64,000 bases of DNA, taken from contig CAKSSY010000001.1 of the NCBI GenBank assembly GCA_934489945.1, positions 12,044-76,043 of the forward strand, read 5' to 3'. This DNA comes from an uncultured Eubacteriales bacterium. GTDB lineage: Bacteria; Bacillota; Clostridia; Oscillospirales; CAG-272. The position numbers and the translations under genes were made by a program. Below are positions 21,448 through 64,000 of this stretch, piece after piece (the stretch's first letter is position 1; the number at the start of each line of letters is the position of its first letter). Under the pieces are notes generated by a model. It saw only the letters and a program-made list of their open reading frames with translations. It was not told the origin of the DNA and searched no databases.

Positions 21448-21637
21448 GGATTTTTTGAATTTTTTTCGTTTTTTTTGCAAAATTCATTTTTTCCGCCTTT
21501 GCTGTCTCTTATGCGACGGAAAATTTGGGAGAGTTTTGTTAAAATTCGCTTTTTTCTTTACTTTTGGTCGATTTTCTATTATAATCTACAATGAAGAAAA
21601 CAATAGAAACCGATTTTTCGGTCGGAAAGGATATTTT

Positions 21638-22330: not shown

Positions 22331-22331
22331 A

Positions 22332-23204: not shown

Positions 23205-23331
23205 GAAATTCCCCTCTTTTTTTCTTTTTCTGATTGTACCACAGAAGTCGGGGAGATTGCAAGTCTTTTTGCTTGACATGGTGGAAAAAATGTGATAAAA
23301 TATTCTAAATTTGTGTTTTGAGGTGCGTGAA

Positions 23332-47364: not shown

Positions 47365-48185
47365 ACAATCATGCCTCCTTCCTTGTTGTCGGAAAAGCGG
47401 TTCATAACCGCAACCGAGATCAGAATCAGGATCATCATGACCAACGAAATGGCTGCACCGATATTATAAGTGTTGACATTTTGGAATTGACGTTCAATGG
47501 TATCACCGATCAGATCAAAAGCACCACCGCCCAGTTTTTGAGAAATGTAGAAGGTGCTGATGGAAGGGACAAAAACCATTGTAATTCCCGAAATGATTCC
47601 CGGTACCGAGAGGGGGAGGGTGACACGGAACAGTGTCATGACACCGTTGCATCCGAGATCGCTTGCCGCCTCATAATATCGCTTGTCCAGCTTGGAAATG
47701 CTGGTATAAATCGGAAGAACCATATAGGGCAAAAAGTCATAGACCATGCCGAGGATAACAGCACCCGATGTGCCGACGATCTTGACTTTGGGAAGCCCGA
47801 TTGTTTCGAGAAGCGAATTGAGGAGTCCGCCATTGTCGAGAATCGTCATCAGGGAATATGTGCGGATCAGGAGGCTGATCCACATGGGCAACATCAGAAA
47901 AACAATCAGCATTTTCTGTTTGCGCGGCGAAAGTTGTGAAATAATATAGGCGAGCGGGTACCCGATGATAAGGCAGATGGCTGTAGCGATGAGGGCAAAG
48001 CAGATCGACAGCAGGAAGATGTGGGTATATCCCGACAGCATGGTAATATTGTCAAACGTAAAATTGCCGTAAGTGTCCGTAAAAGCAAAATATATGACAA
48101 AAATCAGCGGCGCAACAATGAAGAGCAATGCCCAGACGCTATGAGGAACGGCGGCAAAGTTTTCCGAGAAAGAACGTTTTTTCAT
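47361..48185 (-). CDS. potB: Spermidine/putrescine ABC transporter permease
   Basis: EAA-loop [21 protein letters not shown]. 6 TM segments. Confidence 0.9.
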
Positions 48186-49324
48186 TCCGGCATTTCCTCC
48201 TCCTGCTCCTCGACGGATTCGGCATCGGAAAGCTCGTCAAATTCATCGCTGAACGAGGAATAGTCGCCGAACATATTGGAGTATTCGGACTTTTTCATGA
48301 CGTGAATGGCATCCGGCTCAATATACAGTCCGATTGTGTCGCCGGGAGCCACATAGTCTGTGGACTGAATCATCCATTTGAAATTCTGGATATCGACAAT
48401 GATTTCCCAATGAACGCCTTTGAACGTGACACTGGTGACGACACCTTCCAACATTCCTTTTTCGGGGGAGACAACGTCCACATCTTCGGGGCGGATGACA
48501 ATGTCGACTTTTTCTTTCGGAGCAAAACCTTTGTCAACGCAGTCAAAGATGTGACCGGCGAATTTTGCCTTGTAGTCTTCAAGCATTATTCCGTCAAGGA
48601 TATTGGATTCTCCGATGAAGTCGGCAACGAAGGCATTGACCGGTTCGTTGTAAATATCGGCAGGTGTGCCGATTTGCTGAATTTTACCGTCTGCCATCAC
48701 CACGACGGTGTCGGACATGGAGAGTGCTTCTTCCTGATCGTGGGTGACGTAAATAAAGGTAATGCCGGTTTTTGTCTGAATATTTTTCAGCTCATTCTGC
48801 ATATCTTTTCGGAGTTTTAAGTCAAGGGCACCCAAGGGTTCATCAAGCAAAAGAACTTTCGGTTGGTTAATCAGTGCACGGGCAATGGCCACACGCTGTT
48901 GCTGTCCGCCGGAAAGGAAATTGACGTTTTTCTTTTCAAAGCCTTTCAGATTGACGAGAGCCAACATTTCTTTGACTCGCGTTCGTATTTCCGCGTCGTG
49001 CATTTTCTTTACACGAAGACCGAAAGCGATGTTTTCATAAACATTCAGATGAGGAAAGAGCGCGTACTTTTGGAAAACCGTGTTGACGTGTCGCTTGTAA
49101 GGGGGAACATCGTTCAGAACGGCTCCGTCAAAAATGATTTTTCCTCTGTCCGGAGACGCGAATCCGCTGATGATACGAAGCGTGGTGGTTTTTCCGCAAC
49201 CGGAAGGACCGAGCAGTGTTACAAATTCCTTGTCATGAATGTCAAGATCAATGGACTTCAGAACCTGTTCGCCGTCAAACTCCTTGCAGATACCTTTCAA
49301 TTCGATGAGCTTTTTTTTCTCCAT
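48182..49324 (-). CDS. potA: Spermidine/putrescine ABC transporter ATP-binding protein
   Basis: [35 protein letters not shown], and a TOBE-like C-domain plus an acidic tail [22 protein letters not shown]. Start [11 protein letters not shown]. Confidence 0.9.
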
Positions 49325-49447
49325 TCGACATAAATACTCCTTTAGAATCATACAGAATTTTCAAATCGCGGGCGTACCGTTTTTTGAATGGATATATTTT
49401 AGCAGATATGTCCTGGAATTGCAATATCTTTTGAAAAATATTTTGTT

Positions 49448-50023
49448 CTAAGGAGAGTTTTTTTGCAGAAAAATGCGAAAAAAGATCGCTGTGGAGAAAA
49501 AGAAGAGGGAGAGGCTGTTTCCGGTTCGCAAAATCAGATAAATTGAGACGCTCCAAAGTGCAAACAAAAATAAAAAAGAGAGAAAATCCGTTATGCGGCA
49601 GGCGATCGCGGCATTTCCGAAGTGTGCGAGGAGACAGAAACAGATTCTGCCGCCGTCAAAGCCCTGTACAGGCATGAGATTCAGGATGGCGAACGCTGTC
49701 GAAACGGATAGAAAAAAGGAATCTTTCGGGAGCCCACAGAGAAGTCCGATGCCGACGGAGAGCAGGTTGAAAAAGGGACCTGCCGCGCAAAGAAGAATTT
49801 CTTTCCTGTAGGAGAGAATTTGCCCGCGGAACAAAAGGCGGATTCCGAAGGTGTCGGCATAAACTCCGTTTGGTTTTATGCCGAGAAGAACTGCCGAGAG
49901 AAGATGACCTGATTCATGAATCAGAATGGCAAGGAGAGTCAGGAATGGCACTTTGGTCGGGACGGTAAGTGTCCAGACGAGGATGCCGATAAGAAAAACA
50001 ACAAAACTGATTTTCCGGAGCAT
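49448..50023 (-). CDS. M50 family site-2 metalloprotease (SpoIVFB-like core)
   Basis: HESGH (HExxH) in a TM helix and NLMPVQGFDGGR (NxxPxxxxDG). Start MLRKISF follows AAGGGGGA. Confidence 0.7.
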   Translation of the reverse strand: MLRKISFVVFLIGILVWTLTVPTKVPFLTLLAILIHESGHLLSAVLLGIKPNGVYADTFGIRLLFRGQILSYRKEILLCAAGPFFNLLSVGIGLLCGLPKDSFFLSVSTAFAILNLMPVQGFDGGRICFCLLAHFGNAAIACRITDFLSFLFLFALWSVSIYLILRTGNSLSLFFFSTAIFFRIFLQKNSP

Positions 50024-50182
50024 ACGTTTCCCCCTTTCCGACGACATCAGATGCGTCTTCACAAAAAATTAACAAATAAATTTTGGTTGTCTGTTGCAAA
50101 ATGGACAAAAAGAGTATACAATAAAGACCGTTAAAAGAACGGGAAGTGACGGGACCGTAAAAACCGTGAAGAAAGGATCAAT

Positions 50183-51352
50183 ATGGAAATCAATCAGAAA
50201 AGAATTTATGCCGATAATGCGGCAACAACGCCGGTTTCGAGCGAAGTCATAGAAGCAATGGAACCCTGTTTCCGTGAATTTTGGGGCAATCCCTCCAGTC
50301 TTTATCAGGAAGGTCAGCGCGCCAAGGAGATTGTGGATGCCGCTAGAGAAAAGGTGGCAGCTGCGCTTGGATGCGATGCCGGGGAAATTTATTTTACTTC
50401 CTGCGGCTCCGAGTCGGACAACTGGGCAATCAAGGGAGCCGCACACGCACCGGGAAACAAGAGAAAGAAGATTGTTACCAGCAAGATTGAGCATCATGCG
50501 GTTCTTTATACCTGTGAGGCACTTGCCAAGGAGGGGTATGAAGTCGTGTATGTCGATGTTGATGCAAACGGTGTGATTAACATGGACGAGCTTCGCGCGG
50601 CTGTAGATGATAATACTGCGATTGTTGCCGTGATGATGGCGAACAATGAGATCGGCACGATTGAACCGATTGCCGAAATTGCCCGGATTGCTCACGAACA
50701 TGGTGCTCTTATGTTTACCGACGCGGTTCAGGCGGTTGGCAATATTCCTGTAAATGTGAAGGAATTGGGAGTGGATATGCTTTCTCTTTCCGGTCATAAA
50801 CTTCACGCGCCAAAAGGGATCGGTGCCTTGTATATCAGAAAGGGGGTTCGTATCCGCACATTGATTGACGGTGGCGGACAAGAACGCGGAAAACGGGGAG
50901 GAACCGAAAACGTTCCTTATATTGCGGGACTTGGTGTGGCATTGGAAACTGCTGTAAAGCGTTTGCCGGATATGGAAAGGGTCAAAATGTTGAGAGAACG
51001 TTTGATTGACGGCTTGCTGCGGATTCCGTATTCTCAGCTTAACGGTGACAGAGAGTGCCGCCTCCCGGGAAATGCCAATTTTTCGTTTTCGTTTGTGGAA
51101 GGAGAGAGTCTTCTTCTTTTGCTGGATCTTGCCGGAATCAGTGCATCTACCGGTTCGGCGTGTTCGTCAAAGTCGTTGGAACCCTCACATGTGCTGATGG
51201 CGATTGGTGTGGAAGTGGAAATGGCGCATGGGTCGCTTCGTTTTTCCCTTTCTCACGAAAATACGGAAGAGGATGTCGACCGCATTATTGAAACTGTGAA
51301 GGCAAGCGTGGAACGCCTCAGAGCTATGAGCCCGCTTTGCCCTGCCAAATAA
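50183..51352 (+). CDS. nifS: Cysteine desulfurase NifS
   Basis: [25 protein letters not shown] (PLP Lys) and [10 protein letters not shown] (active-site Cys). Confidence 0.9.
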
Positions 51353-51374
51353 TATTATCAAAGGAGAAAACAAT

Positions 51375-51812
51375 ATGCTTTACAGTGAAAAAGTTATGGA
51401 TCATTTCAGCCATCCGCGGAATGTCGGCGAAATTGCCGATGCGGACGGTGTTGGCACCGTAGGCAATGCCAAGTGCGGTGATATTATGCAGATGTTTATT
51501 AAGGTGGACAAAGAAACCGGCATTATTACCGATGTCAAGTTCAAAACGTTCGGATGCGGTGCCGCCATTGCCACATCGTCAATGGCTACCGAGCTCGTGA
51601 AGGGAAGAAGCATTGATGAAGCCCTTACGTTGACCAATTCCGCTGTGGTGGAGGCATTGGAGGGTCTTCCGCCGGTCAAGATTCATTGTTCGGTTCTTGC
51701 GGAAGAGGCGATTAAAGCGGCAATTGCTGATTATTATAAGAAAAACGGTATTGATAAGGAAATTCCGGCACCCAAGGATTGTCACGAGTGTGAAATCCAT
51801 GCCGAGAAATGA
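51375..51812 (+). CDS. nifU: Fe-S cluster scaffold protein NifU/IscU-like
   Basis: HPRNVGEI, NAKCGDIM, FKTFGCGAAIA and KIHCSVLA conserved Cys motifs. Confidence 0.9.
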   Translation: MLYSEKVMDHFSHPRNVGEIADADGVGTVGNAKCGDIMQMFIKVDKETGIITDVKFKTFGCGAAIATSSMATELVKGRSIDEALTLTNSAVVEALEGLPPVKIHCSVLAEEAIKAAIADYYKKNGIDKEIPAPKDCHECEIHAEK

Positions 51813-51830
51813 AGCATAAATTTTCATATT

Positions 51831-51865
51831 GCGAGTGTTGAGAAAAACGACACTCGCGTTTTTTT
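51831..51865 (+). terminator. nifSU terminator
   Basis: GCGAGTGTtgagaaaaacgACACTCGC followed by GTTTTTTT. Confidence 0.65.
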
Positions 51866-52297
51866 GCATGATTGAATTTTATTGTGCTTGGTTTTGCTTA
51901 AAATATAAGCATTATTTTCCATATACAGAAGGAAAAGAACTGCTTTATGCCGCAACAATTTCCATGACATGGAAACTTTGACGGGCGTGCGAATTTTGAC
52001 GTTTTGCGTTAGAACTTGACGAATTCTTATGTGTGGCGAACGGTTTTCGCTTCAAAAAGACGGGTAAAACAAATTTACTTTTGGAACTGGGCTTGGCAAT
52101 CGGCGAAAATGAGTTTTAGCAATGTGCACAAAAACTTTCGTTTGCTTCGAAACAGCAATTGAATTTGGTAAATTTCAATTACCATTTGATGACTGTGTGA
52201 TTGAATTGTGTAGAACTTTGCAGTGGGGAAGTGCCACAAAGCCTTGATATACTTGGATTCTGTCTGTTTTGCTTGAAATATTATTATGTAATATTTC

Positions 52298-52326
52298 TTG
52301 ACAGTTTCTTCGATTTGTGGTATGAT
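52298..52326 (+). promoter_or_regulatory. Promoter of the large ABC/DUF5696-like operon (TTGACA-N17-TATGAT, TG-extended)
   Basis: TTGACA at 52298-52303, and gTGgTATGAT ending at 52326. About 200 nt upstream of the ATG at 52534. Confidence 0.5.
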
Positions 52327-52533
52327 ATCTCTATAAAAATAAATCCAAACGTTTCGGCAGATGCAAACATCGTGTGGTGTTACTTTCTGTTTGGACGAAT
52401 GGCTCATTCCGCCTCCGACTTTGTAAGGGTTCCGCTTCTTTGCTCCGGCATTTCGACGGACATGGTTGCTGAATCTGCTTGTGGGGCGGAAAGTTATGTA
52501 TTCCATGCTTGCACAATTTTCAGGAGGAAAACT

Positions 52534-55500
52534 ATGAACAAGAAAAGAACCCAAAGAATTTTGTCTTTGGTACTTGCTTTGGCGTTCCTTGTCCCTGGCA
52601 CGCTTTTTGCTGCCGCGGCGGAGGGGAATCTTCTGACGTCACCTGCCGTTACGTCGGGGCAAGGGAACTCGGGGAATGGCTCTGTCACCGATGCTACCAT
52701 TGACGATGTGAGAGAAATTTTGGATTCCGCGTCCTACGAGGAGTATCGCAGCGAGTATTACGTTGCGAAAACCACCGTTGTGGACGGAGTGAAAACCACC
52801 ACGTATGAATGGACGGTGAAGCCGGGAGAAAAGGAAATCGTAATTGACGCGATTGACAATTTATACACCGAGGGAACCGATGCCGCATACAAGGTGGAAA
52901 CGTATGACGGTGTCAAAGCGTTGTATACGCCGTCCTCCGGCACCGTTTCATGGAAGGTTGCGATTCCGGAAAGAGCGAGATACAGCATTGTTATCGAATA
53001 TTATCCGGTTTACACCAACAATGCCGGCGAGGTAGTCAGTAAGGCAACCGGTATTGAGCGTATTTTCCGTATCAATTCGGCAATCCCGTTCCTGGAGGCA
53101 CGTTATCTTTCTCTTGCCAAGATATATCGGAATGAGTATGTGAGTGCCGAACGCAAGGTCGACAACAAAAAGTCGATTTCCGAGTACATAAGTGAGGCGG
53201 AAGCGGTTGGACTGAAGGTGACGGAAAAACGCGAATCACAGGGCGGTGGCACATATCTGATTTATGAAATGCCAGAAGTGTGGACGTCTGCGATTTCGGA
53301 TTATTGTGAGGCAAACGGTATCCGTTTCTTTACGACGGACATTGACAACAACGAAATTCGTCCTACCATCAAGCAAAGCCCCGCATGGTCTTCCTATGAG
53401 ATTCACGACGCCGACGGCTATTATGCGGAGTCTTTCGAGTTCGTGTTTGACAAATCTGATTCGACCATTATTTCACTGACTGGTGTCAATGAGCCGATGG
53501 CGATCAAATCCATTCGGTTGATTCCTCATGAAGATTATAAGACCATGGAAACGGTGTCTGCCGGTTATCCGACAAAGACACCGGGGACGGACAAAGTCAA
53601 GATTGAAGGCGAATATCCGTATTCGACTTCATCTCAGACAATTTATCCGATAGAGGATACCCGTTCTGCCAAGACAAGCCCGATTTCCACGGCACGTACA
53701 TATCTGAATACGATTGGCGGCGTGGGCGGTGAAAAATGGGTGTCTGCGGGACAGACCATCTCTTATCGTTTTACGGTCAACAACAGCGGTATATATAATA
53801 TAGTAGCGAGATTCAGCCAGTCGACACTGGACGGTATGTATTCTTCGAGATCTCTTGCTTTACATACCAACTATACGGAGAGCGAGTATAAAGCGAAGTT
53901 CGGGAATCTGAACGGCTATTATGACGGTTGTCCCGGTGTTGAGGCAACAAGACTTCGTTTTGATTATTCCACGGCTTGGCAGACTAAAATTCTGTCGGAC
54001 GGGAATGTGGATCTTGCCTTCTATTTTGAAAAAGGCGTTGAATATCAGATCGACTTTACAGTAACCCTCGGTTCCATGGGCTCGTTGGTGAGTCAGGTGG
54101 AGAGTGCACTGGAAGCGATCAATGCCGATTATCTGAATATTCTTAAACTGACCGGTGCAGAGCCTGACGATTACCGCGATTACGGCTTTAAACGTGTTAT
54201 GCCGGATGTGGTAGAAAGCCTTTGCAAACAGGGTGAGCTTCTGTACGCTCTTGTGGAAGAACTTCAGGAAATGTCCGGCGTCAAAGGATCCATGGCAGCT
54301 ACATTGGAAAAAGTGGCATGGCTTCTGACTAGAATGGGAAATGATCCCGAAAATGAGATTGCAAGAAACCTTACACAGTTCAAGAGTTATATCGGCTCGC
54401 TTGGCACATGGATCAGCGATGCCAAAACGCAGCCTCTTCAGATTGACTACCTGCTCATTCAGGGAACCGATCAGAAGGTTCCGAAGGCTGAGGCAAACTT
54501 CTTCCAGTCGTTTGCACATGAAATCAGCAGTTTCTTCCAAAGTTTCGTTCGTAACTACGACAGAATGGGTGCTACTGCCGATTATAAAGATGATGACAAA
54601 GAAGTAATCAAGGTTTGGCTGGCATACGGACGCGACCAGTCTCAGGTTATCCGTAACCTTGTCAACAACGAATTTACTCCGGCTTCCGGCGTTCCGGTCA
54701 ATCTGAAATTGGTCGCCGGCGGAACGCTTCTTCCGTCTATTCTTGCCAAGAGCGGACCTGATGTCTATATCGGTCTCGGGCAGAGCGAAGTCATCAACTA
54801 TGCAATCCGCGGTGCTTTGATTGCGGTGGAGGAACGGGACGGATTTAAGGAACTTTGCCTGGATGAAGAAACCAGACAGTTCAACGAAGCTGCGATGATG
54901 GTTCTCGGTATTGCGGACGCGGCGAACGTCATGCATTACTACGGACTCCCTGAAACACAAACATTTAATATGATGTTTGTCAGAAAGGATATTCTTGCCG
55001 GTTTGAATTTGGATATTCCCAAAACATGGGATGATGTTTTGTCGGCAATTCCGGTGCTTCAGGCAAACAATATGCAGATCGGTATGCATTCCGATTACAA
55101 GATCTTCCTTTATCAGATGGGTGGCGAGCTGTTTGCTGACGGCGGTATGCGAATCAATCTTGATTCCAATGTTGCACTGGAAGCATTTGAGATGATGTGT
55201 AGCTTGTACACCAACTACTCTTTCCCGTACACATACGATTTTGCAAACCGTTTCAGAACCGGTGAGATGCCGATCGGCTTTGCCGGCTACACCGAAACCT
55301 ATAACAAACTGAAGGTTTTTGCAACTGAAATTGAAGGGCTTTGGGGTATGTACCCGATGCCGGGAACCGAAGATGAATACGGCAATATTAACAACTGTGC
55401 AGTTTCTACGGCGACGGCAATTGTTATGATTACAGGTTGTGAAAATGTTGACGGGGCGTGGGAATTTATGAAGTGGCACTCCGGTGAGGATTGTCAGGAG

Positions 55501-56175
55501 CAGTATTCCAATGAAATGGTTGCAATCCTTGGTCCTTCCGCAAAACATCCTACTGCCAACATCGATGCGCTTGAAGGTCTTCCGTGGTCGGCGGATGAAC
55601 TGAAGGAAATCAAACTTCAGTTTAATAATCTTGCCGCAATTCCCAACTATCCCGGTTCTTACATTATTGACCGTTATACCAACTTTGCATTTCTTGCTGC
55701 GTTCAACGATGGCGCGGACCCTGCGGAAGAATTGCTTTCCCATATTACAACAATTAACAAGGAAATTGCCCGCAAGAGACAAGAATTTGATTTGGAAACG
55801 CTGGATTATATCGGACAGAAACTCTCCGAAAAGAGAATTTCGCAGGCATTGACGCTTCTTTCTACCGGAACTCTTTCGGTGGAAATCGGTGTGGAGAACA
55901 GTAACGGAAAGGTCGAACTTCATACCGTCAAATATTCCGTCAGTGACAGCCTGAAAAAGCAATACGCTACCGAGATTGACAAGGTCATTGCCGAGCTTTC
56001 AAAGACAACAGATATTAACAACAAGCTCAGCGAAGAAAGACAGATGACACTCTTAAAAGAAAACATTGAAATTTTGTCTGCAATTCAGACAAGCGGTGCG
56101 GATGCCGAGGGCATTGCCATGGCGAGCAAGCTGATGAATGAAGCACTGAATGCTCTGCTTAGTTATCAGCACTAA
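52534..56175 (+). CDS. Giant (1213 aa) secreted solute-binding protein: ~690-aa N-terminal extension fused to an ABC family-1 SBP domain and a helical tail
   Basis: AGGAGG RBS. SPase-I type signal MNKKRTQRILSLVLALAFLVPGTLFAAAAEG with no lipobox Cys. From ~54600, KVWLAYGRDQSQVIRNLVNNEFTPASGVPVNLKLV..PDVYIG is typical of sugar SBPs. The listed ORF is over-extended to 52201. Confidence 0.75.
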   Translation: MNKKRTQRILSLVLALAFLVPGTLFAAAAEGNLLTSPAVTSGQGNSGNGSVTDATIDDVREILDSASYEEYRSEYYVAKTTVVDGVKTTTYEWTVKPGEKEIVIDAIDNLYTEGTDAAYKVETYDGVKALYTPSSGTVSWKVAIPERARYSIVIEYYPVYTNNAGEVVSKATGIERIFRINSAIPFLEARYLSLAKIYRNEYVSAERKVDNKKSISEYISEAEAVGLKVTEKRESQGGGTYLIYEMPEVWTSAISDYCEANGIRFFTTDIDNNEIRPTIKQSPAWSSYEIHDADGYYAESFEFVFDKSDSTIISLTGVNEPMAIKSIRLIPHEDYKTMETVSAGYPTKTPGTDKVKIEGEYPYSTSSQTIYPIEDTRSAKTSPISTARTYLNTIGGVGGEKWVSAGQTISYRFTVNNSGIYNIVARFSQSTLDGMYSSRSLALHTNYTESEYKAKFGNLNGYYDGCPGVEATRLRFDYSTAWQTKILSDGNVDLAFYFEKGVEYQIDFTVTLGSMGSLVSQVESALEAINADYLNILKLTGAEPDDYRDYGFKRVMPDVVESLCKQGELLYALVEELQEMSGVKGSMAATLEKVAWLLTRMGNDPENEIARNLTQFKSYIGSLGTWISDAKTQPLQIDYLLIQGTDQKVPKAEANFFQSFAHEISSFFQSFVRNYDRMGATADYKDDDKEVIKVWLAYGRDQSQVIRNLVNNEFTPASGVPVNLKLVAGGTLLPSILAKSGPDVYIGLGQSEVINYAIRGALIAVEERDGFKELCLDEETRQFNEAAMMVLGIADAANVMHYYGLPETQTFNMMFVRKDILAGLNLDIPKTWDDVLSAIPVLQANNMQIGMHSDYKIFLYQMGGELFADGGMRINLDSNVALEAFEMMCSLYTNYSFPYTYDFANRFRTGEMPIGFAGYTETYNKLKVFATEIEGLWGMYPMPGTEDEYGNINNCAVSTATAIVMITGCENVDGAWEFMKWHSGEDCQEQYSNEMVAILGPSAKHPTANIDALEGLPWSADELKEIKLQFNNLAAIPNYPGSYIIDRYTNFAFLAAFNDGADPAEELLSHITTINKEIARKRQEFDLETLDYIGQKLSEKRISQALTLLSTGTLSVEIGVENSNGKVELHTVKYSVSDSLKKQYATEIDKVIAELSKTTDINNKLSEERQMTLLKENIEILSAIQTSGADAEGIAMASKLMNEALNALLSYQH

Positions 56176-56211
56176 CGGGTTATTTAATCTATTTGATTTA
56201 AGGAGAGAAAA

Positions 56212-57159
56212 ATGTCAAACAAAGCAGCAGAAAAAAAAGCTGTTTCGCGGAAAGACATGACTCGGTTACAGTGGACATGGAAGGAAATGAAGAGAAACAA
56301 AGCAGCGTATCTGATGTGCTTTCCCTTCATGTTGATTTTCACGCTGTTTACCGTTGTTCCGGTCATCCTTTCGATCGTGTTCAGCGTTACGGACTTCAAC
56401 TTGCTTGAATGGCCGAATTTTGTCTTTGCCGACAACTATATCCGTCTGTTCCTCGATGACGATATTTTTATCATTGCCGTCAAAAACACCTTTATTTTTG
56501 CCATTATCGTCGGTCCTGTATCCTATTTGCTTTCTTTCGTGGTGGCTTGGTTTATCAACGAGTTGCCGCCTAAGATCAGAGCCGTGGTGACACTGGTCTT
56601 CTACGCTCCTTCCATTTCCGGTCAGGTTTACCTGATTTGGCAGACGTTGTTCTCGGGCGACTCTTACGGCTGGGTAAACGCCAAGCTCTTGGAAATCGGA
56701 TTGATTACCACACCGATTCAGTTCTTTAAAAATGCGGATTATGTTATGCCTCTTTGTATCGTGGTCGCGCTGTGGACATCGCTTGGTACCGCTTTCCTGT
56801 CCTTTATTGCCGGACTTCAGGGCGTGGACAAGGCGCAGTACGAAGCCGGTGCCGTTGATGGTGTCAAGAACCGGTGGCAGGAACTGTGGTTTATCACACT
56901 CCCCAATATGGGACCGCAGTTGATGTTTGGTGCCATCATGGCAATTACCAGTTCTTTTGGCTTCGGCGGAATCGTAACCGCTCTTTGCGGCTTCCCGTCT
57001 GTCGACTATGCAGCTCATACGATTATGCACCATTTGGACGACTATTACGGTCAGCGTTTTGAGGTCGGATATGCTTCGGCGATTGCTGTGGTATTGTTCG
57101 TAATCATGGTGGGCGCGAACATGATCGTTAAGAAGATCATTGCAAAGGTAGGTACGTAA
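56212..57159 (+). CDS. Carbohydrate ABC transporter permease (CUT1, MalF/UgpA-like)
   Basis: 6 TM segments and EAA-type loop YEAGAVDGVKNRWQELWFITLP. Confidence 0.9.
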   Translation: MSNKAAEKKAVSRKDMTRLQWTWKEMKRNKAAYLMCFPFMLIFTLFTVVPVILSIVFSVTDFNLLEWPNFVFADNYIRLFLDDDIFIIAVKNTFIFAIIVGPVSYLLSFVVAWFINELPPKIRAVVTLVFYAPSISGQVYLIWQTLFSGDSYGWVNAKLLEIGLITTPIQFFKNADYVMPLCIVVALWTSLGTAFLSFIAGLQGVDKAQYEAGAVDGVKNRWQELWFITLPNMGPQLMFGAIMAITSSFGFGGIVTALCGFPSVDYAAHTIMHHLDDYYGQRFEVGYASAIAVVLFVIMVGANMIVKKIIAKVGT

Positions 57160-57160
57160 T

Positions 57161-58033
57161 ATGGCAAAATTAAGAACAAGAAATCATAAAGTCGTACTGA
57201 ACCGATCGCGCGGCGGCGATGCCGGCATTACCGTAATGCTTTCGCTGTTGGGTATCTTCATGTTCCTTCCGATGCTTTATGTTGTAATGCAGTCATTAAA
57301 GCCTTTGGATGAACTTTGGATGTTTCCGCCGAGATTTTACGTGGTCAGTCCCACACTCAGCAACTATTCGGACCTTCTGACTTTGATGAATACATCATGG
57401 GTTCCGTTTTCCCGATATATTTTCAATACGGTGTTTGTTTCTGTGGTAGGAACTACCGGTAACCTGTTCCTTTCCTCCATGGCGGCTTATGCAATGGCGA
57501 AAATCAAATTTCCGGGCGGCAAGTTGATGTTCAAAACCGTCAGAACTTCTTTGATGTTCCATGCGACGGTAACTTCTACTACATCGTTCCTGATTATGAG
57601 TAATCTGCACCTGATTGATACTTACTGGGCAAGAATTATTCCCGCATGGGCAACTTCTCTTGGTTTGTACCTCATGAAGCAGTTTATGGAAACCGGTGTT
57701 ACCGATGCTGTATTGGAGAGCGCACGTCTTGACGGCGCAAGCGAGCTTCGTACATACTGGACGATTGCCATGCCGATGGTAAAACCCGCTTGGTTGACGC
57801 TGATTGTATACTCTTTCAAGGATTTGTGGAACGCGGGCGCGTCCATGTACATTCAGTCGGAACAGTTGAAATCCTTTAACTATGCCATTCAGCAGGTTAT
57901 GGCCGGTGGTATCAAGCGTGCCGGTGCCGGCGCGGCGTCTACGGTCATTATGATGATCGTACCGATTACGGTCTTTATCATTACACAGTCGAATATCATT
58001 GAAACCATGGGTTCCAGTGGTATGAAGGATTAA
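57161..58033 (+). CDS. Carbohydrate ABC transporter permease (CUT1, MalG/UgpE-like)
   Basis: 6 TM segments and EAA loop LESARLDGASELRTYWTIAMPMVKP. 1-nt gap to the previous gene. Confidence 0.9.
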   Translation: MAKLRTRNHKVVLNRSRGGDAGITVMLSLLGIFMFLPMLYVVMQSLKPLDELWMFPPRFYVVSPTLSNYSDLLTLMNTSWVPFSRYIFNTVFVSVVGTTGNLFLSSMAAYAMAKIKFPGGKLMFKTVRTSLMFHATVTSTTSFLIMSNLHLIDTYWARIIPAWATSLGLYLMKQFMETGVTDAVLESARLDGASELRTYWTIAMPMVKPAWLTLIVYSFKDLWNAGASMYIQSEQLKSFNYAIQQVMAGGIKRAGAGAASTVIMMIVPITVFIITQSNIIETMGSSGMKD

Positions 58034-58044
58034 GGAGGATGCAG

Positions 58045-60222
58045 ATGAAAAAGTTTATATCCGTTCTTGCTTTGATGTTTGCCCTCATTATGATTCTTCC
58101 TTTGTCGGCAGGCGCATTCAACTCTTTTCAGACCTATACCAACGCGATTGGCGGATCTCCGCTGTATTCCCCCGATGCTTATATTCCGATTAACACATAT
58201 AATTCCGCTTATATGGGACTTGATAAGACGATGTCCGATCCTTACGATATTGCTGTGGACGGTGAGATGAATGTCTATATTGCCGATGCAGGATCGAATT
58301 CCATTATTGTGTTGGACAGATATTATAAGCATAAATTTACTTTGACAAGTTTTACCAATGAAATCGGAGCCCCTGACTCCTTTGCTTCACCTCGTGGTGT
58401 GTTTGTTACCGATGACAAATACGACGGCTATGGCAATTTGGTGGAGGAAGGAAAAATCTACATTTGCGACACGCAGAATTATCGTCTTGTTGTGTTCAGC
58501 CGCAGCGGAGAATTTCTGTATGTTTTGGATGCTCCTGAGTCAGAGTTGTTTGAGGAAAATTCCATTTATTATCCGATTGCGGTTGCGGTCGATAAATATA
58601 ATCGAATTTTTGTGGTGTCGTCGCAGACCACGCAAGGTATTATTGTCTTGACATCGGAAGGCGAATTTACCGGGTTTATCGGCGCGCCGAAGGTCAGCAT
58701 TTCTCTTTGGAACATTATCTGGAGACGTTTTCAGAACGAACAGCAGAGAAAACAGCAGTCAACCTTTGTTCCCGTGACTTTCAATAACATTACGGTGGAC
58801 GAAGATGGTTTTGTTTATGCGACATCCGATAAAATCGACTCCAGCAAAATTGCATCTGCAATTCGTTCCAAATCCATTTCCGGCACAAATGCACCGGTAA
58901 AAAAACTGAATGCCGCAGGCGATGAGATTATGAGCCGTAACGGCTTTTTCCCGCCGGTTGGTGAAGTTGCATATCTTACCAGTTCTAATAACTCAAGCGA
59001 TATTACGGGAGTTTCCACAATCGGCGATGTCGCGTTGGGCGATGCGGGGACGTGGTCCATTACCGATACCAAGCGAAGCAAAATATATACCTACGACTCA
59101 CAGGGCAACCTGTTGTTCGCTTTCGGAGACAAGGGCAATCTTCAGCTCGGTCATATCGGTACGTTAAAAGCAATTGCCTATCAGGGCGAAAAATTGTTGG
59201 CACTGGATTCCGGTTCCACCAAGAGTATTACGGTGTATGAGAGAACCGAGTACGGAAACATTCTGATTTCGGCGGTTGCTGACCAAATTAACCGTGAATA
59301 CGATAAGGCATCCGAAAACTGGACTGAAATTCTGAAAAGAAACTCGAATTTTGATGCCGCCTATATCGGTATCGGTCAGGCTCTTTACAGAAGCGGTAAA
59401 TACGAGGCGGCTCTTGATTATTATGAGGCTGCGTATGATACCGAAAACTGGTCAAAGGCGTATGCCGAACTCCGTAAGGAAAGAGTCGAAAAAATCTTTC
59501 TTTTGATTCCGCTTGGAATTGTTGCACTTTGTATCGGTTTTGTTTTCCTTGCGAAAAAGATCGGCAAAGTAAATCTTCGCGCGGCAACGTCGGGAGAAAA
59601 GATTACATTTGGTAAGGAACTTTTGTTTGGATTTCATGTGATTGCTCATCCGTTCGATGGCTTCTGGGATTTGAAGCACGAAAAACGTGGTTCGTTACGT
59701 GCGGGACTCATTTTCCTCGCTGTGGCAGTGCTGACGTTCTTCTATCAGGCGATCGGACAGGGCTATTTGCTCAATCCGACGGGCGGATATTCTACAATTC
59801 TTACGCAGGTTATCAGTGTATGTATCCCGATCTTACTGTTTGTAATTTCCAACTGGTGTCTGACAACGCTGTTTGAAGGCGAGGGCAGTTTTAAGGACAT
59901 TTTTGTTGCAGTGTGTTACTCGTTGCTTCCGATTCCGCTGTTCACGATTCCTGCAACTATTTTCTCCAATATTGTGACGAACGATGAAAAGGATATTATC
60001 ACGTTGCTCGGAACTTTAGCGTTTATTTGGGCAGGCTTCCTGATCTTCTTCGGAACAATGGTTACGCACGATTATTCACTTGGCAAAAATATTATTATGG
60101 TAATATGTTCGGTTGTCGGTATGGCGTTTATTATGTTTGTTGCCCTGCTGTTTACGACGCTTTTGGGTAAGATCGTAAGTTTCGTCACTAATATCATAAC
60201 TGAAATTGCTTACCGTATGTAA
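58045..60222 (+). CDS. Secreted NHL-repeat beta-propeller plus TPR-like segment fused to a C-terminal 5-TM Yip1-type membrane domain
   Basis: Signal peptide ..LPLSAGA/F. Six NHL-like blades (for example YDIAVDGEMNVYIADAGSNSIIVLD and GKIYICDTQNYRLVVFSRSGEF). TPR-like YRSGKYEAALDYYEAAY. Then TM helices with GFWDLKHEKRGSL typical of Yip1 domains. ATG at 58045 lies 6 nt after AAGGAGG. Confidence 0.7.
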   Translation: MKKFISVLALMFALIMILPLSAGAFNSFQTYTNAIGGSPLYSPDAYIPINTYNSAYMGLDKTMSDPYDIAVDGEMNVYIADAGSNSIIVLDRYYKHKFTLTSFTNEIGAPDSFASPRGVFVTDDKYDGYGNLVEEGKIYICDTQNYRLVVFSRSGEFLYVLDAPESELFEENSIYYPIAVAVDKYNRIFVVSSQTTQGIIVLTSEGEFTGFIGAPKVSISLWNIIWRRFQNEQQRKQQSTFVPVTFNNITVDEDGFVYATSDKIDSSKIASAIRSKSISGTNAPVKKLNAAGDEIMSRNGFFPPVGEVAYLTSSNNSSDITGVSTIGDVALGDAGTWSITDTKRSKIYTYDSQGNLLFAFGDKGNLQLGHIGTLKAIAYQGEKLLALDSGSTKSITVYERTEYGNILISAVADQINREYDKASENWTEILKRNSNFDAAYIGIGQALYRSGKYEAALDYYEAAYDTENWSKAYAELRKERVEKIFLLIPLGIVALCIGFVFLAKKIGKVNLRAATSGEKITFGKELLFGFHVIAHPFDGFWDLKHEKRGSLRAGLIFLAVAVLTFFYQAIGQGYLLNPTGGYSTILTQVISVCIPILLFVISNWCLTTLFEGEGSFKDIFVAVCYSLLPIPLFTIPATIFSNIVTNDEKDIITLLGTLAFIWAGFLIFFGTMVTHDYSLGKNIIMVICSVVGMAFIMFVALLFTTLLGKIVSFVTNIITEIAYRM

Positions 60223-60245
60223 CATACAGAACAGGAGATGATAGA

Positions 60246-63200
60246 ATGAAAAATATGAAAAAATTAATATCGTTGCTCTTGACTGTATGTTTTCTTCTCG
60301 GGGCAAGCACGGGAATTCTTTCAATCGGAGCCTCGGCAACGACTACAACGTCTGCCACACCGGATCAAAAAGATCCGATTGACCTTTCCGCAATCGATTA
60401 TACCAAAGAGGTTTATTATACCGCGGAAGAAAAACTGGCAACGATGTCGATGGCGTTTGAAAAGGGCGACTATCAGTTGTGGGTCAATTCCTACACCGGC
60501 GAGGTTGCTACAGTCAATACCAAGACGGGAGAAACACTGTTCTCCAATCCTTATGATGTCGGCTTGAGTAAGGCTGTTACAACCACCAAAAACGAAATTC
60601 TCTCGCAGATCATTATCGGATATACCGGCAATGATTCTACTATGACCAATACGTTCAACAGTTACAATGATGCCGTGTTGAACGATCAAATTAAGGTTAA
60701 GAATATTAAAAACGGCATTCGCATTGAGTATACGATCGGTCGTGAGGAAACCAATTACTTGGTCCCAAGACTGATTACCGCGGAACGCTTTGAAGAATTC
60801 TTCGGTGCGACGATGCGTGAGGCAATGAAGGAAGAGGGAAAAGAATGGTATTATGAAAAGCGTTTTTTGACCTTCTACACACTTCGTGACCCCGCTGAGT
60901 TTGCGGATTCTCAGAGAAAGCTGGCGGAGTTGTATAAGGAAATTCCGATCACCGAAAAGATCGGTGCTGTATATCAGATCAATGAAGAGATTACGGCGGC
61001 AGAGTTGATGCAGCTTGAGGAATACATCAAGACCTATGTTCCCGCGTATACCTATGAGGAACAGGATTTTGACCATGAAAAAACCGAGTATGTCAATGAA
61101 GATCAGAATCCCGCAGTGTTTAAGCTCGCTCTTGAATACACGCTTGACAACCTCGGAATGAAGGTGACACTTCCTGCAAACGGTATTCGCTTTGATGAAT
61201 CGCTTTACAAACTTTCCTATATCACGATTTTGCCTTATATGGGTGCGGGAACTTACAGCGAAACCCGTCCGAACACCGGATATACTTTTCTCCCGGATGG
61301 AGCGGGCGCAATCTTCCGTTTTGAAGATCTTGGCGGCGGCGGAACTGTCAGCGGTCAGGTTTACGGTCAGGACTATGCTTATCACAACATCAGCGGAAAG
61401 TACCAGGAAGTATTCCGTATGCCTGTATATGGAATTGTTCGCAACAATGAGTATGTCTATGTGAAAAATCCTGTGACGGGTGCTTATGTGTTGGAGAAGC
61501 AAGAGAACCCGACCAGTAGCGGTTTCTTTGCAATTATTGAAGAAGGAGACGCACTTGCTACGATTCGTTCCTTCCACATGGGCAATACGGCTGAGTATCA
61601 TACCACGCAGGTCAGCGTGAATCCGAGACCTTCCGACTCATATAATATTGCGGATTCCATTTCTGTCGGCAATAACTCGTCGTGGACGGTTGTTTCGGAC
61701 AGAAAATACGTTGGGAATTACACCATTCGTTATATTATGCTGACGGACGATGCGGTTGCCGCGGAAAAAGGAATTACCGACTATTATCCGACTACGTATT
61801 TCGGTATGGCGATGGCATATCAGAATTATTTGACATCCCCCTATTCTACCGGTACGCAGAATGAAACCCCGGACAAACAGACCTCGGTTCTGAAAAGAAT
61901 GGAGGACAGCGAACTTGAATCCACGATTCCGCTGTATATTGAAACGTTCGGAACGATTCAGACCGTTGAAAAAATCCTTTCCGTTCCTGTCAATGTCATG
62001 GCTCCTCTGACAACTTTTGAGGATATTATGACGATGTATGATGAGCTTGCGGAATACGGAAATATCACCAATATCAATTTCAAACTCACGGGTTACGCGA
62101 ATGGTGGTATGTATTCTACGGTTCCGTACGGACTGAAGTGGGAGAGTGCAGTCGGCGGCAAGAAAGGCTTCCGGAAGTTGCTTGAATATGCTGCCGAGAT
62201 TAACGGCGGATCAACGACTGACGGAAAAGCACTCGGTATCTTCCCGGATTTCGATTTTGCGTATGTCAACAGTCTTTCTGCGTTTGATGGCTTTTCTTTC
62301 CGGAGAGATGCGGTGAAAACCATAGATGACCGTTACAGCACCAAACGCGTTTATTCCTCTACTTATCAGACCAGCGAAGGATTTGGAAACCTGTTGATCT
62401 CTCCTGCATATTTCAGCAGATTCTATGAAAAACTTACCAAAAACTATTTGAAGTATGTGGATGAGAAGAAGGGGATTTCCGGATTGAATATTTCTGTTGC
62501 CACGCTCGGTTCCGATCTTAACTCCGATTTTGATGAGAAAGAACCCTATAACCGTGAGGACAGCAAGAATTTCACCATTGAAGCCCTCAAGTATCTCTCG
62601 GATCATTACAACAAGGTCATGGTGCAGGGTGGAAACGTGTACACATGGCAATATGCAGATTATATTGTCGGACTTTCGATTGACTCAAGCCGTTATCTGA
62701 TGGCAAGTAATACTATTCCGTTTGCCGGAATCGTACTTCACGGCTATATGCAATACACAGGAACGGCAATCAATGAGGAAGGTAACATCCGTTATGGTAT
62801 TCTTAAAGCAATCGAAAGCGGTTCCTCTCTTTACTTTATCCTGACATATCAGAATGCCACCAAGTTGAAGGAAGATTACCTTCTCAGTCAGAACTACTCG
62901 GTCAGATATGATATTTGGGCAGGTAGCAAGGATGAAGAGGGCGTGTTCAAAACGGGCGAACTGATTGAGTTGTATAATCAGTTGAATGATGCACTCGCCG
63001 ACGTACAGAACAAAAAAATTATCGGACACAAACTTCTTGACGGATGGCGTGTTCCCGATGCGGATGAGCTGATTGCCGATGCCGAGGCGGAAAAGGCAGA
63101 GGAACTTCGCATGGAGGAAGAAAAGAAAGCGGCTGAGGAAGCAAGGCTTCGCAGTGAACATCTTGAGGCAAGAGTCTCTGTCGTGAAAAATGCAGAAACG

Positions 63201-63848
63201 GCTCGTAATACTGCTAAGCAGAGACTTGCCGGCGTTCAGATTGAAACAATCCTGAAGAGTCTGCAGACAGCATTGGATAAAATAGAAACGGCAAAGGAAG
63301 CCATCAAGAATGCAGCGGAAGGTGATGATATTACCGCATTTGAAAAATCTATCGCCGATGCTGAACTTTCAATTCACTCTTTGTATAATACCAATGTAAT
63401 GGTGGCGTATAACGAAATTGTAAATGCCAAAAAGACGGTTGACGACAAGGTTCGTTTGCTGAATGAATCCATTGAGTTTTTCAAGGCTGACGGAAGTTAT
63501 GACAAAGACTTCATCTCAGAGGTTGAGGTCAATGTTGAGCCTGTTCGGAAAATTGCCGAGGAAGTGGACGAAATTATGGCAACCATTACCGATTATCGCA
63601 ATCAGGTTATTGCCGCGGCAAACGGTATGATTGTTGTGGAGGAAGAAGTAGAAGAAAAACCCGAGGAAAAGGGTATGCCGGAAAAATACAGAGTGAATGA
63701 CGGATCAATTGTCTCTGTGGTATACGGCGAAGTTGGTTCTCCCTACAAGACATTCCTGCTGAATTACAATTACTTTGCCATTACTGTGGAGTATGAGGGA
63801 ACCACTTATGAAATCGGTGCGTACGGATACGTCGTACTGGATCACTGA
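60246..63848 (+). CDS. 1200-aa secreted protein, DUF5696-like (name from memory) with a C-terminal coiled coil and small beta domain
   Basis: Signal peptide MKNMKKLISLLLTVCFLLGASTGILSIGASA. Central LPDGAGAIFRFEDLG..MPVYGIV..GFFAIIEEGDALATI. Residues ~930-1130 are heptad-like and Ala/Glu/Lys rich (EAEKAEELRMEEEKKAAEEARLRSEHLEARV...). Confidence 0.6.
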   Translation: MKNMKKLISLLLTVCFLLGASTGILSIGASATTTTSATPDQKDPIDLSAIDYTKEVYYTAEEKLATMSMAFEKGDYQLWVNSYTGEVATVNTKTGETLFSNPYDVGLSKAVTTTKNEILSQIIIGYTGNDSTMTNTFNSYNDAVLNDQIKVKNIKNGIRIEYTIGREETNYLVPRLITAERFEEFFGATMREAMKEEGKEWYYEKRFLTFYTLRDPAEFADSQRKLAELYKEIPITEKIGAVYQINEEITAAELMQLEEYIKTYVPAYTYEEQDFDHEKTEYVNEDQNPAVFKLALEYTLDNLGMKVTLPANGIRFDESLYKLSYITILPYMGAGTYSETRPNTGYTFLPDGAGAIFRFEDLGGGGTVSGQVYGQDYAYHNISGKYQEVFRMPVYGIVRNNEYVYVKNPVTGAYVLEKQENPTSSGFFAIIEEGDALATIRSFHMGNTAEYHTTQVSVNPRPSDSYNIADSISVGNNSSWTVVSDRKYVGNYTIRYIMLTDDAVAAEKGITDYYPTTYFGMAMAYQNYLTSPYSTGTQNETPDKQTSVLKRMEDSELESTIPLYIETFGTIQTVEKILSVPVNVMAPLTTFEDIMTMYDELAEYGNITNINFKLTGYANGGMYSTVPYGLKWESAVGGKKGFRKLLEYAAEINGGSTTDGKALGIFPDFDFAYVNSLSAFDGFSFRRDAVKTIDDRYSTKRVYSSTYQTSEGFGNLLISPAYFSRFYEKLTKNYLKYVDEKKGISGLNISVATLGSDLNSDFDEKEPYNREDSKNFTIEALKYLSDHYNKVMVQGGNVYTWQYADYIVGLSIDSSRYLMASNTIPFAGIVLHGYMQYTGTAINEEGNIRYGILKAIESGSSLYFILTYQNATKLKEDYLLSQNYSVRYDIWAGSKDEEGVFKTGELIELYNQLNDALADVQNKKIIGHKLLDGWRVPDADELIADAEAEKAEELRMEEEKKAAEEARLRSEHLEARVSVVKNAETARNTAKQRLAGVQIETILKSLQTALDKIETAKEAIKNAAEGDDITAFEKSIADAELSIHSLYNTNVMVAYNEIVNAKKTVDDKVRLLNESIEFFKADGSYDKDFISEVEVNVEPVRKIAEEVDEIMATITDYRNQVIAAANGMIVVEEEVEEKPEEKGMPEKYRVNDGSIVSVVYGEVGSPYKTFLLNYNYFAITVEYEGTTYEIGAYGYVVLDH

Positions 63849-63869
63849 GGAAAGGGAGGTGCATAATTC

Positions 63870-64000
63870 ATGACTAATACAAAGAGTATTCCCGGTAAGT
63901 CCGGGAATGAAAAATCCGCGCCGAAAAAAAGAAGAAAAATCGCCTCTCTTGACAGAAGAAAGGCTCGTGCCGGATGGTTTTTCGTTCTTCCGTTCGTAGT
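63870..64000 (+). CDS. ABC transporter permease-like protein, N-terminal fragment (continues beyond window)
   Basis: AAAGGGAGGTG RBS. MTNTKSIPGKSGNEKSAPKKRRKIASLDRRKARAGWFFVLPFV resembles the cytoplasmic N-tail plus first TM segment of MalF-type permeases. Confidence 0.5.
   Translation, partial: MTNTKSIPGKSGNEKSAPKKRRKIASLDRRKARAGWFFVLPFV

Follow-up and report, generated by a model that had tools for sequence, protein, structure and literature searches.

Gram-positive polysaccharide utilization loci combine a co-located carbohydrate-active enzyme (CAZyme), a transporter and a regulator, and the solute-binding proteins (SBPs) of monoderm bacteria are normally lipoproteins, unlipidated SBPs being unusual. 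For importers of the carbohydrate uptake transporter 1 (CUT1) class of ATP-binding cassette (ABC) transporters in Bacillota, the use of multitask ATPases is established (PMC7658222). The Yip1-family protein YknW modulates the assembly of the ABC transporter YknXYZ (PMC4887032), and our literature search found no other studied precedent for a bacterial Yip1 protein. DagB, an enzyme resembling glycoside hydrolase (GH) family GH129, consists of a beta-sandwich at the N-terminus, a TIM barrel and, C-terminally, an immunoglobulin-like domain, and is active, although its catalytic residues differ from those of the GH129 enzyme NagBb (PMC5698469). Here, we analyze a seven-gene cassette with likenesses to each of these systems from an uncultured Eubacteriales bacterium (assembly GCA_934489945.1, contig CAKSSY010000001.1). 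The whole stretch of 64,000 nucleotides that was analyzed, positions 12,044 to 76,043 of the forward strand of the contig, is called the window, and the cassette encodes a giant SBP, four permeases, a membrane protein combining NHL, TPR and Yip1 domains (hereafter the Yip1 protein) and a large secreted protein of the Pfam family DUF5696. We regard it as somewhat probable that the cassette is a cell-surface module for the capture, trimming and import of glycans. No study mentioning either DUF5696 or the cassette was found in the searchable library.

Six tightly packed genes lie on the plus strand within positions 52298-64000, behind one promoter, in the order giant SBP, permease P1, permease P2, Yip1 protein, DUF5696 protein and permease P3. 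The seventh, permease P4, follows on the same strand beyond the end of the window, on the same contig, together with a strong terminator (locus L001, located in a Hadza gut metagenome through an exact match of the DUF5696 protein, its coordinates becoming those of the window by adding 50245). Since P4 and the terminator follow P3, the operon comprises seven genes over ~13.4 kb with one promoter and one terminator. The initial annotation had described an operon of six consecutive genes, with gaps of 36, 1, 11, 23 and 21 nt and a further permease gene from 63870; our check of the open reading frames (ORFs) found the six genes, their spacing and the further permease (P3, 328 residues in full) to be as described, while the operon extends by one more gene, which starts 12 nt after P3 and gives two complete permease pairs. 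Its 720-bp AT-rich gap proved to be 721 nt between the nifU stop at 51812 and the SBP start, with a GC content of 0.40-0.43 against 0.46-0.50 close by. Its single good promoter is the top consensus match within 51700-64000, agreeing at 11 of 12 positions, and the -35 hexamer and extended -10 core (T-TG-TA ... AT) are invariant in all 14 orthologous upstream regions. The spacing, the single conserved promoter and the single terminator suggest that the seven genes are co-transcribed.

The SBP start was placed at the ATG at 52534 because AGGAGG precedes it and the ribosome-binding site motif is kept across orthologues, CAGGAGGAA being invariant in the 14 orthologous loci compared; for the same reason, the mechanical ORF start of the gene, a TTG at 52201, was dropped. 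In the Yip1 gene, the ATG at 58039 is also open, yet abuts the ribosome-binding site. In the alignment of the 14 upstream regions, the leaders of the orthologues diverge in sequence and measure 200-350 nt, and terminator-like hairpins occur in some. In the loci L021, L026 and L062, the leader has, a short way downstream of the conserved promoter, a GC-rich hairpin with a T run after it, e.g., GGGGCTGTTTTTGCCCCTTTTTG, and this element might act as an attenuator. It has no counterpart in the leader of the window, and a search of this 5' region for a riboswitch or leader RNA gave no Rfam match and a nonsignificant fold z-score of -1.4. Two long minus-strand ORFs overlap the operon, one at 53860-55962 (700 residues) inside the SBP gene and one at 60321-61601 (426 residues) inside the DUF5696 gene; both have Cys-, Arg- and Lys-rich translations that are not protein-like and are probably shadow ORFs, not genes.

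To place the cassette among other genomes, we used a scan with one genome per species, which gave 458 stretches encoding close DUF5696 relatives, and examined the best 80 loci. The gene order is identical and on one strand in all 80, with 62 loci complete, 18 cut solely by contig ends and no exceptions. Nearly all loci are from metagenome-assembled genomes of uncultured Clostridia, Eubacteriales or Oscillospiraceae, and the named sources are mostly ruminant feces, rumen or hindgut, with some human and horse fecal samples; uncultured Clostridia carrying the seven-gene cassette come from the human (including Hadza), ruminant and horse gut, among other sources. Identity to the window protein is 65-92% for orthologues of P1 and P2, 52-85% for P3 and P4, 51-82% for the Yip1 protein, 42-74% for the SBP and 40-74% for the DUF5696 protein, and the SBP lengths are near constant across loci while the DUF5696 length varies. 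Searching annotated plasmids with tblastn, we found the same order in cultured Butyrivibrio fibrisolvens D1 (pNP243) and on a plasmid of Paenibacillus cellulosilyticus, with DUF5696 identities of 23-27%; in both hosts, the cassette lies on a megaplasmid. The arrangement is therefore older than the split of Bacilli and Clostridia, and the neighborhood of SBP, two permeases, YIP1 and DUF5696 that the initial annotation described for Clostridia and Paenibacillus is real. The DUF5696 family itself is large: counted by their representatives in a library-wide phmmer search with residues 1-940, it has at least 3,674 clusters (50% identity) at E <= 1e-3, while the stricter limit of E <= 1e-30 leaves 1,075, and the lengths in the family range from ~900 to 2545 residues.

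The product of the first gene is a CUT1-type binding subunit with an SBP_bac_1/MalE-like fold. Pfam SBP_bac_1 matched at E 8e-16 and a profile search of the PDB led to the sophoro-oligosaccharide SBP Lin1841 at E 9e-10. In the AlphaFold2 (AF2) model, with a predicted local distance difference test score (pLDDT) of 77, the core of the protein matched the sophoro-oligosaccharide binder 5ysf with a Foldseek TM-score of 0.77, and GacH (acarbose), MalE and cycloisomalto-oligosaccharide binders were further close matches. With 1213 residues, the protein is about three times the size of known SBPs (~420 residues), as had been claimed. For the Pfam carbohydrate-binding module (CBM) family CBM_35, with its cut-off of 28 bits, orthologues reach 28-31 bits and the window protein gives a weak match. 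The protein has a Sec signal peptide with an AAA/E cleavage site and no lipobox; signal peptides of the AXA type are shared by the SBP and the DUF5696 protein, and a lipobox-like motif was seen in just 7 of 120 inspected homologues of each.

The DUF5696 family model (PF18952) matched the fifth protein at E 3e-116 over residues 280-932 (61083-63041), with 389.8 bits against a cut-off of 25.6. Its AF2 model (pLDDT 74, predicted TM-score 0.63) consists of N-terminal beta domains, a GH129/GH101-like TIM barrel and a C-terminal beta domain, which is the three-domain plan of DagB. Foldseek aligned the model with DagB (5opq, a GH129-like 3,6-anhydro-D-galactosidase) at E 2e-17 and a TM-score of 0.59-0.60, with NagBb (5wzp), an alpha-N-acetylgalactosaminidase of GH129, at E 4e-13 and 0.58, and with the GH101 enzymes EngBF and SpGH101 at E 7e-9 to 2e-7 and 0.19-0.29, all TM-scores being by target. 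As modeled, the protein thus has the architecture of GH129 and GH101 enzymes. A profile of the barrel alone placed NagBb first in the PDB (E 0.012, over 74 residues covering alpha1-beta2-alpha2-beta3), with GH13 enzymes as the next barrel matches, and this match may be taken as weak yet independent support for homology. Searches of the PDB with phmmer and the full profile found no characterized relative by sequence, the output being TIM-barrel noise (IMPDH) and coiled-coil matches. Because significant similarity to characterized members is lacking, the protein falls outside GH129 and GH101 as CAZy defines them by sequence and, if active, would represent a new GH family.

A deep alignment of DUF5696 proteins, spanning the Bacilli/Clostridia split at 23-27% identity, retained E297, D301, E318, D351, D376, D681, D761, R770, N797, H832, N843 and E857 as invariant. 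D761 lies ~54% into the barrel, compared with ~58% for D486 of DagB, and the argument is one of position only. Between the barrel and the last beta domain, the AF2 model contains a hairpin of two helices, 939-1021 and 1030-1124. The hairpin is missing from the Butyrivibrio and Paenibacillus orthologues, in which the barrel runs directly into the C-terminal strands; where present, it is the least conserved stretch of the protein (15-23% identity), clade-specific and of variable length, and would explain most of the length range of the family.

The Yip1 protein has a signal peptide, an NHL-type six-bladed propeller and TPR outside the cell, one transmembrane helix and a Yip1 domain with five transmembrane helices. 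Pfam Yip1 (PF04893) matched residues 532-702 at E 8e-16, with 58.8 bits against a cut-off of 28.6; TPR_16 and NHL/SBBP matched as well, and NHL propellers in the PDB were found at up to E 1.6e-7. The hydropathy profile contains seven hydrophobic segments, namely the signal peptide, a transmembrane helix at 486-504 and five in the Yip1 domain (555-703). By its score above the gathering threshold and its five-helix membrane domain, the protein is a member of the Yip1 family. Butyrivibrio encodes the NHL and YIP1 parts in separate genes, and Paenibacillus has them fused. The Yip1 protein is alone in the cassette in joining an integral membrane domain to large extracellular domains for protein interaction.

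Pfam BPD_transp_1 matched P1 and P2 only weakly, and NCBIfam returned UgpA/UgpE/MalG-type matches for the permeases. Their matches in the PDB include SugB, AlgM2 and MalG, those of P2 being to SugB at E 4e-13 and AlgM2 at E 1e-12. Read directly from the sequences, all four permeases keep an intact EAA loop for docking an ATPase: EAGAVDG...ITLP from residue 211 in P1, ESARLDG...IAMP from residue 186 in P2, ESCSIDG...ITLP in P3 and ESAYIDG...IIIP in P4. The pairwise identity is ~26% between P1 and P3 and also ~26% between P2 and P4. The low identities and the four EAA loops therefore indicate two complete, anciently diverged translocator pairs, and the CUT1 combination of a MalF-type and a MalG-type membrane subunit with EAA loops is present twice, as P1/P2 and P3/P4. 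The C-terminal cytoplasmic tail of P2 is more conserved than the remainder of that protein; its last 10 residues, ETMGSSGMKD (58004-58033), are near invariant, with an identity of 0.99 in 65 orthologues.

No ABC ATPase was found inside the cassette, either at the window locus or in the 80 loci examined. The initial annotation had gone further and stated that the window encodes no nucleotide-binding subunit, which is incorrect: PotA (48182-49351, minus strand) and an iron/corrinoid-type ABC ATPase (18194-19228) are present, neither of them in the operon. PotA was considered as the missing ATPase and rejected, as it scores above the NCBIfam equivalog cut-off and adjoins potB in a potABCD operon. 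In P. cellulosilyticus, the cassette is preceded on its own strand, at a distance of 37 nt, by a ugpC gene (MsmX-type). A cassette without its own ATPase is ordinary, because shared ATPases are established and ugpC adjoins the Paenibacillus cassette, and the earlier proposal of an MsmK-like ATPase encoded elsewhere agrees with the four EAA loops and that ugpC gene; it is plausible that an ATPase of the MsmK/UgpC type energizes the permeases. At the upstream edge of the loci L021, L026, L037, L039 and L062, there are ABC ATPase-like ORFs that look like SufC-type ATPases of Fe-S assembly.

The reading that we favor, glycan capture, trimming and import at the cell surface, can be laid out as a sequence of steps. 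One strong conserved promoter would drive all seven genes. The DUF5696 protein would be exported and, as a glycosidase, act on an alpha-linked sugar, probably of galacto configuration, in a polymer or glycoconjugate; this role is proposed from its three-domain fold of the GH129/GH101 type and from the deep conservation of its acidic residues, D761 lying near the nucleophile position. Its helical hairpin, ~12 nm here and much longer in relatives, could serve as a stalk reaching across the wall and keeping the catalytic head at a distance from the membrane complex. The giant SBP would be exported without a lipid anchor, hold the polymer with its two CBM-like beta-sandwiches and bind the released oligosaccharide with its CUT1 core, while the Yip1 protein would serve as a membrane scaffold and tether the unanchored SBP and DUF5696 proteins beside the translocators. 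P1P2 and P3P4 would form two translocators, each energized by a multitask ATPase of the MsmK/UgpC type encoded elsewhere, and one SBP would serve both. Of the claims made from the initial reading, the sugar-type CUT1 importer is supported by NCBIfam, PDB and Foldseek matches of the SBP and the permeases, and glycan capture and processing is in part borne out by the GH129/GH101-like fold of DUF5696 and the CBM-like modules of the SBP. The checks that it had proposed, Pfam and structure searches and a comparison of gene neighborhoods, yielded the families DUF5696, Yip1 and SBP_bac_1, the GH129/GH101-like fold of DUF5696 and a combination of genes that is strongly conserved.

The sole hint about the substrate comes from Butyrivibrio, in which the SBP gene overlaps the end of a GH43 gene in an arrangement of translational coupling. 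The GH43 protein has no signal peptide (cytoplasmic) and is closest to exo-beta-1,3-galactanases (6eug, 3vsf, 7bys). An AraC-type response regulator and a histidine kinase are encoded upstream and two ordinary SBPs downstream, and the two-component system next to the cassette is a typical sugar-utilization context. The hint is toward type II arabinogalactan; it is not safely transferable to the window because the identity is ~25%.

Several observations weigh against glycan import as the role of the cassette. In gut Clostridia, the flanking genes have housekeeping functions (nifS/nifU, alaS, an rRNA methyltransferase, suf, secA, udg, mecA and a helicase), and no regulator, recognized CAZyme or sugar-catabolic gene was found nearby, whether next to the cassette of the window, in five further contexts or among the gene families that recur in flanks, the last surveyed in the 72 of 80 loci with flanking DNA. 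The context in these bacteria is unlike typical inducible glycan loci, and it is only in the distant Butyrivibrio orthologue that a regulator and a recognized CAZyme adjoin the cassette. Sequence support for GH129 is marginal, and no Pfam GH family matched the window's DUF5696 protein or five diverse relatives even at E up to 5. The deep alignment contains no conserved Glu ~31 residues after D761, the spacing of E517 in DagB. In the AF2 model, the pLDDT is below 50 over residues 691-714, 751-778 and 789-816, and the stretch 751-778 contains the most conserved motif of the protein, SDFDE...YNRED. Finally, this reading does not account for two translocators being paired with a single SBP.

The same housekeeping flanks, with neither regulator nor CAZyme, would be expected under the main rival, in which the cassette turns over and recycles the cell's own envelope glycopolymer (a secondary wall polysaccharide, a teichoic-acid-like or a capsular glycan) and re-imports the fragments. 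A conserved promoter near consensus, as found in constitutive genes, is also in keeping with such a role, as are permeases 65-92% identical where NifS is 68-81% and NifU 71-93% identical, and a helical stalk whose length differs by lineage in the way that envelope thickness would. We nevertheless judge this recycling role improbable. In Butyrivibrio, the exo-beta-1,3-galactanase-like GH43 gene and the sugar-type two-component system point to a plant glycan, nutrient uptake is the typical setting of a CBM_35-like module and of an oligosaccharide-type SBP, and the megaplasmid location in both cultured hosts is not that of a core envelope locus; no wall-synthesis gene adjoins the cassette in any examined locus. 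Chance juxtaposition of unrelated permease pairs and secreted proteins that form no functional unit is excluded by the synteny and has a negligible probability, all 80 loci being colinear on one strand, with the same order in Lachnospiraceae and Paenibacillaceae, gaps of 1-36 nt, a single promoter and a single terminator.

Another possibility concerns the DUF5696 protein alone, which might be a catalytically dead GH-like fold with a surface glycan-binding or structural function, akin to noncatalytic surface glycan-binding proteins, in a system importing oligosaccharides made by other enzymes or organisms. The invariance of D351, D376, D681, D761, E857, H832 and R770 at 23-27% identity fits an active site better than a scaffold, and we give a dead enzyme only a small probability. 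It would account for the absence of a significant sequence match to any GH family and for the acid/base position predicted from DagB not being an invariant Glu, and a structural or adhesive function would fit the long insertion of helices; a pure scavenging system, moreover, needs no other hydrolase in the cassette. Against this, DagB is active despite catalytic residues unlike those of NagBb (PMC5698469), and catalytic plasticity is therefore the norm in the GH129-like fold group. The substrate could also be something other than a carbohydrate, since CUT1-fold SBPs are able to bind further kinds of solute and a nonglycan polymer could be processed by the NHL propeller or by DUF5696. Many structural neighbors of the SBP core are dinucleotide-binding CUT1-fold proteins (e.g., 7c0x and mutant entries), and propellers of the NHL and SGL types include lactonases and lyases; the top SBP matches, however, are binders of oligosaccharides (sophoro-oligosaccharides, acarbose for GacH, cycloisomalto-oligosaccharides, MalE), and with the CBM_35-like module of the SBP, the GH-like fold of DUF5696 and the GH43 neighbor in Butyrivibrio, a noncarbohydrate substrate appears very improbable.

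A more far-reaching form of the glycan-import reading would make the cassette a Gram-positive counterpart of a "utilisome", a supercomplex spanning the wall: the NHL and TPR domains of the Yip1 protein would hold the CBM-bearing unlipidated SBP and the stalked DUF5696 protein, the founder of a new GH family distantly related to GH129/GH101, over two ABC translocators sharing one SBP. We consider this assembly doubtful; if true, ABC importers would gain a new architectural class, of ancient origin in Bacillota, which in a large group of uncultured gut Clostridia would be a core feeding system under constitutive expression. Characterization of the cassette would give probably a new glycoside hydrolase family and a role for bacterial Yip1 proteins in importers, and it would explain how a monoderm cell retains an unlipidated SBP and why one SBP is encoded with two translocators. 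Should DUF5696 prove to be an ordinary glycosidase that supplies an equally ordinary CUT1 importer, the finding would shrink to a useful annotation of a common unknown. The question is directly testable because two cultured hosts, B. fibrisolvens D1 and P. cellulosilyticus KACC 14175, carry the cassette.

Table 1. Features of the cassette and its boundaries, in window coordinates; positions past 64000 are window equivalents of positions in locus L001
Feature	Position	Strand	Basis or remarks
Intrinsic terminator of the nifS-nifU unit, upstream operon boundary	51830..51858	+	11-pair stem, then T run
Sigma-A type promoter, TTGACA-17-TATGAT, extended -10 TG	52298..52326	+	11/12 match
5' leader, ~200 nt	52327..52533	+	Sequence not conserved; no Rfam match
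SBP	52534..56175	+	1213 aa; Pfam SBP_bac_1
SBP beta-sandwich 1	52759-53532	+	AF2; faint Golvesin_C similarity
SBP beta-sandwich 2, CBM35-like	53593-54066	+	AF2, Pfam CBM_35
SBP helical bundle	54076-54426	+	AF2
SBP CUT1 core	54439-55785	+	AF2, Foldseek
SBP tail, helical/beta-hairpin, poorly conserved	55822-56169	+	AF2
Permease P1, MalF/UgpA type	56212..57159	+	315 aa; 65-91% identical to orthologues
Permease P2, MalG/UgpE/SugB type	57161..58033	+	290 aa
NHL-TPR-Yip1 membrane protein	58045..60222	+	725 aa from ATG 58045, 727 from 58039
NHL beta-propeller, extracellular	~58216-59238	+	Pfam, PDB search
TPR of the Yip1 protein	~59272-59448	+	Pfam
Yip1 domain, five transmembrane helices	59632-60144	+	Pfam
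DUF5696 protein, secreted	60246..63848	+	1200 aa; Pfam
Helical (coiled-coil-type) hairpin of the DUF5696 protein	63060..63617	+	aa 939-1124; AF2
Permease P3, MalF/UgpA type	63870..64000 in window, to 64856 beyond	+	328 aa; NCBIfam
Permease P4, MalG type	64869-65918, outside window	+	349 aa; L001, NCBIfam
Bidirectional terminator, 20-bp stem	65964-66006, outside window		L001; convergent gene next

Directly upstream of the cassette (Table 1), NCBIfam identified nifS and a Clostridial-type nifU (50183-51858, plus strand), a unit with its own terminator. At least 12 related loci, some with a DUF5696 identity of only ~50%, have the pair ahead of the cassette, and the cassette's local synteny with Fe-S assembly genes therefore predates the species. 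Further upstream lies what looks like a potABCD-type spermidine/putrescine ABC transporter operon (45320-49351, minus strand), in which PotA and PotB (47361-48185) were identified and the ORFs 46552-47364 and 45320-46651 occupy the places expected for potC and potD. The 204-residue ORF between this operon and nifS (49448-50062, minus strand) has no NCBIfam match at E up to 1e-5. The ORF 18194-19228, with an ABC ATPase of the iron-siderophore/heme/corrinoid type, has same-strand neighbors, which suggests that 17352-20337 (plus strand) is a metal or corrinoid uptake operon. Downstream of the cassette, a convergent gene (15763-16563 of L001, minus strand; window-equivalent 66008-66808) encodes a 266-residue multi-pass membrane protein with no NCBIfam match and adjoins the cassette only in the closest relatives. 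In locus L091, from one related metagenome-assembled genome, a gene called as a 3635-residue product with no Pfam match (21450-24278) starts ~5 kb downstream of the cassette. In P. cellulosilyticus (L086, 15874-25097), the cassette is followed by genes for four LLM-class flavin-dependent oxidoreductases, an NADPH-dependent oxidoreductase and two ordinary SBPs.

Among the known systems, the bifidobacterial route for mucin cores (extracellular GH101 EngBF, GH129 NagBb and the GNB/LNB CUT1 importer with its GltA-type SBP) resembles the cassette in combining an enzyme of GH101/GH129 fold with a CUT1 oligosaccharide importer in a gut bacterium. The SBP core of the cassette superposes on GltA-type and related binders (Foldseek rank 49 and others) and its DUF5696 protein on NagBb, EngBF and SpGH101. 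In contrast to the enzymes of that route, DUF5696, which is ~10% identical to them in the structural alignment, matches no GH101 or GH129 sequence model. The cassette also differs in that its enzyme is encoded inside the transporter operon, its SBP is three times larger and unlipidated, and a Yip1 membrane protein accompanies two permease pairs. The presence of the cassette in soil and rumen bacteria as well makes a role specific to mucin unlikely. The best structural match to DUF5696, with the same domain plan, is DagB (ZGAL_3152, 5opq), the alpha-1,3-(3,6-anhydro)-D-galactosidase of Zobellia galactanivorans. The identity between the two is 11%, the DagB crystal chain has 659 residues, and DUF5696 differs by its extra N-terminal domains and its helical insertion; unlike DUF5696, DagB is encoded in a carrageenan utilization locus of a Bacteroidota species and is predicted to be anchored in the outer membrane.

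CUT1 importers energized by MsmX or MsmK (e.g., AraNPQ-MsmX) share with the cassette an SBP and MalF/MalG-type permeases with EAA loops in an operon without an ATPase gene, and a gene of the UgpC/MsmX type adjoins the cassette orthologue in Paenibacillus. Unlike the cassette, they have one permease pair, a lipoprotein SBP of ~420 residues and no Yip1, NHL or DUF5696 component. YknW is small and is not known to have NHL or TPR ectodomains, and YknYZ is a MacB-type exporter for a peptide toxin, whereas the cassette would encode a type I importer. The YknWXYZ system of Bacillus subtilis is like the cassette in that a Yip1-family membrane protein is encoded with an ABC transporter (PMC4887032). 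Sus-like utilisomes of Bacteroidota are analogous in concept only, a surface glycan binder, a surface glycosidase and a transporter being encoded together to act as a single harvesting unit, as the products of the cassette might. They have no homologous parts and rely on an outer-membrane TonB-dependent transporter in contrast to the cytoplasmic-membrane ABC translocators of the cassette. The parts of the cassette are of known kinds, a CUT1 importer, a GH-like fold and a Yip1 protein, and their conserved combination matches no described system that we found. It is distinguished by its two translocators, a giant unlipidated SBP bearing CBM-like modules, an NHL-TPR-Yip1 protein and an enzyme-like DUF5696 protein encoded inside the transporter operon.

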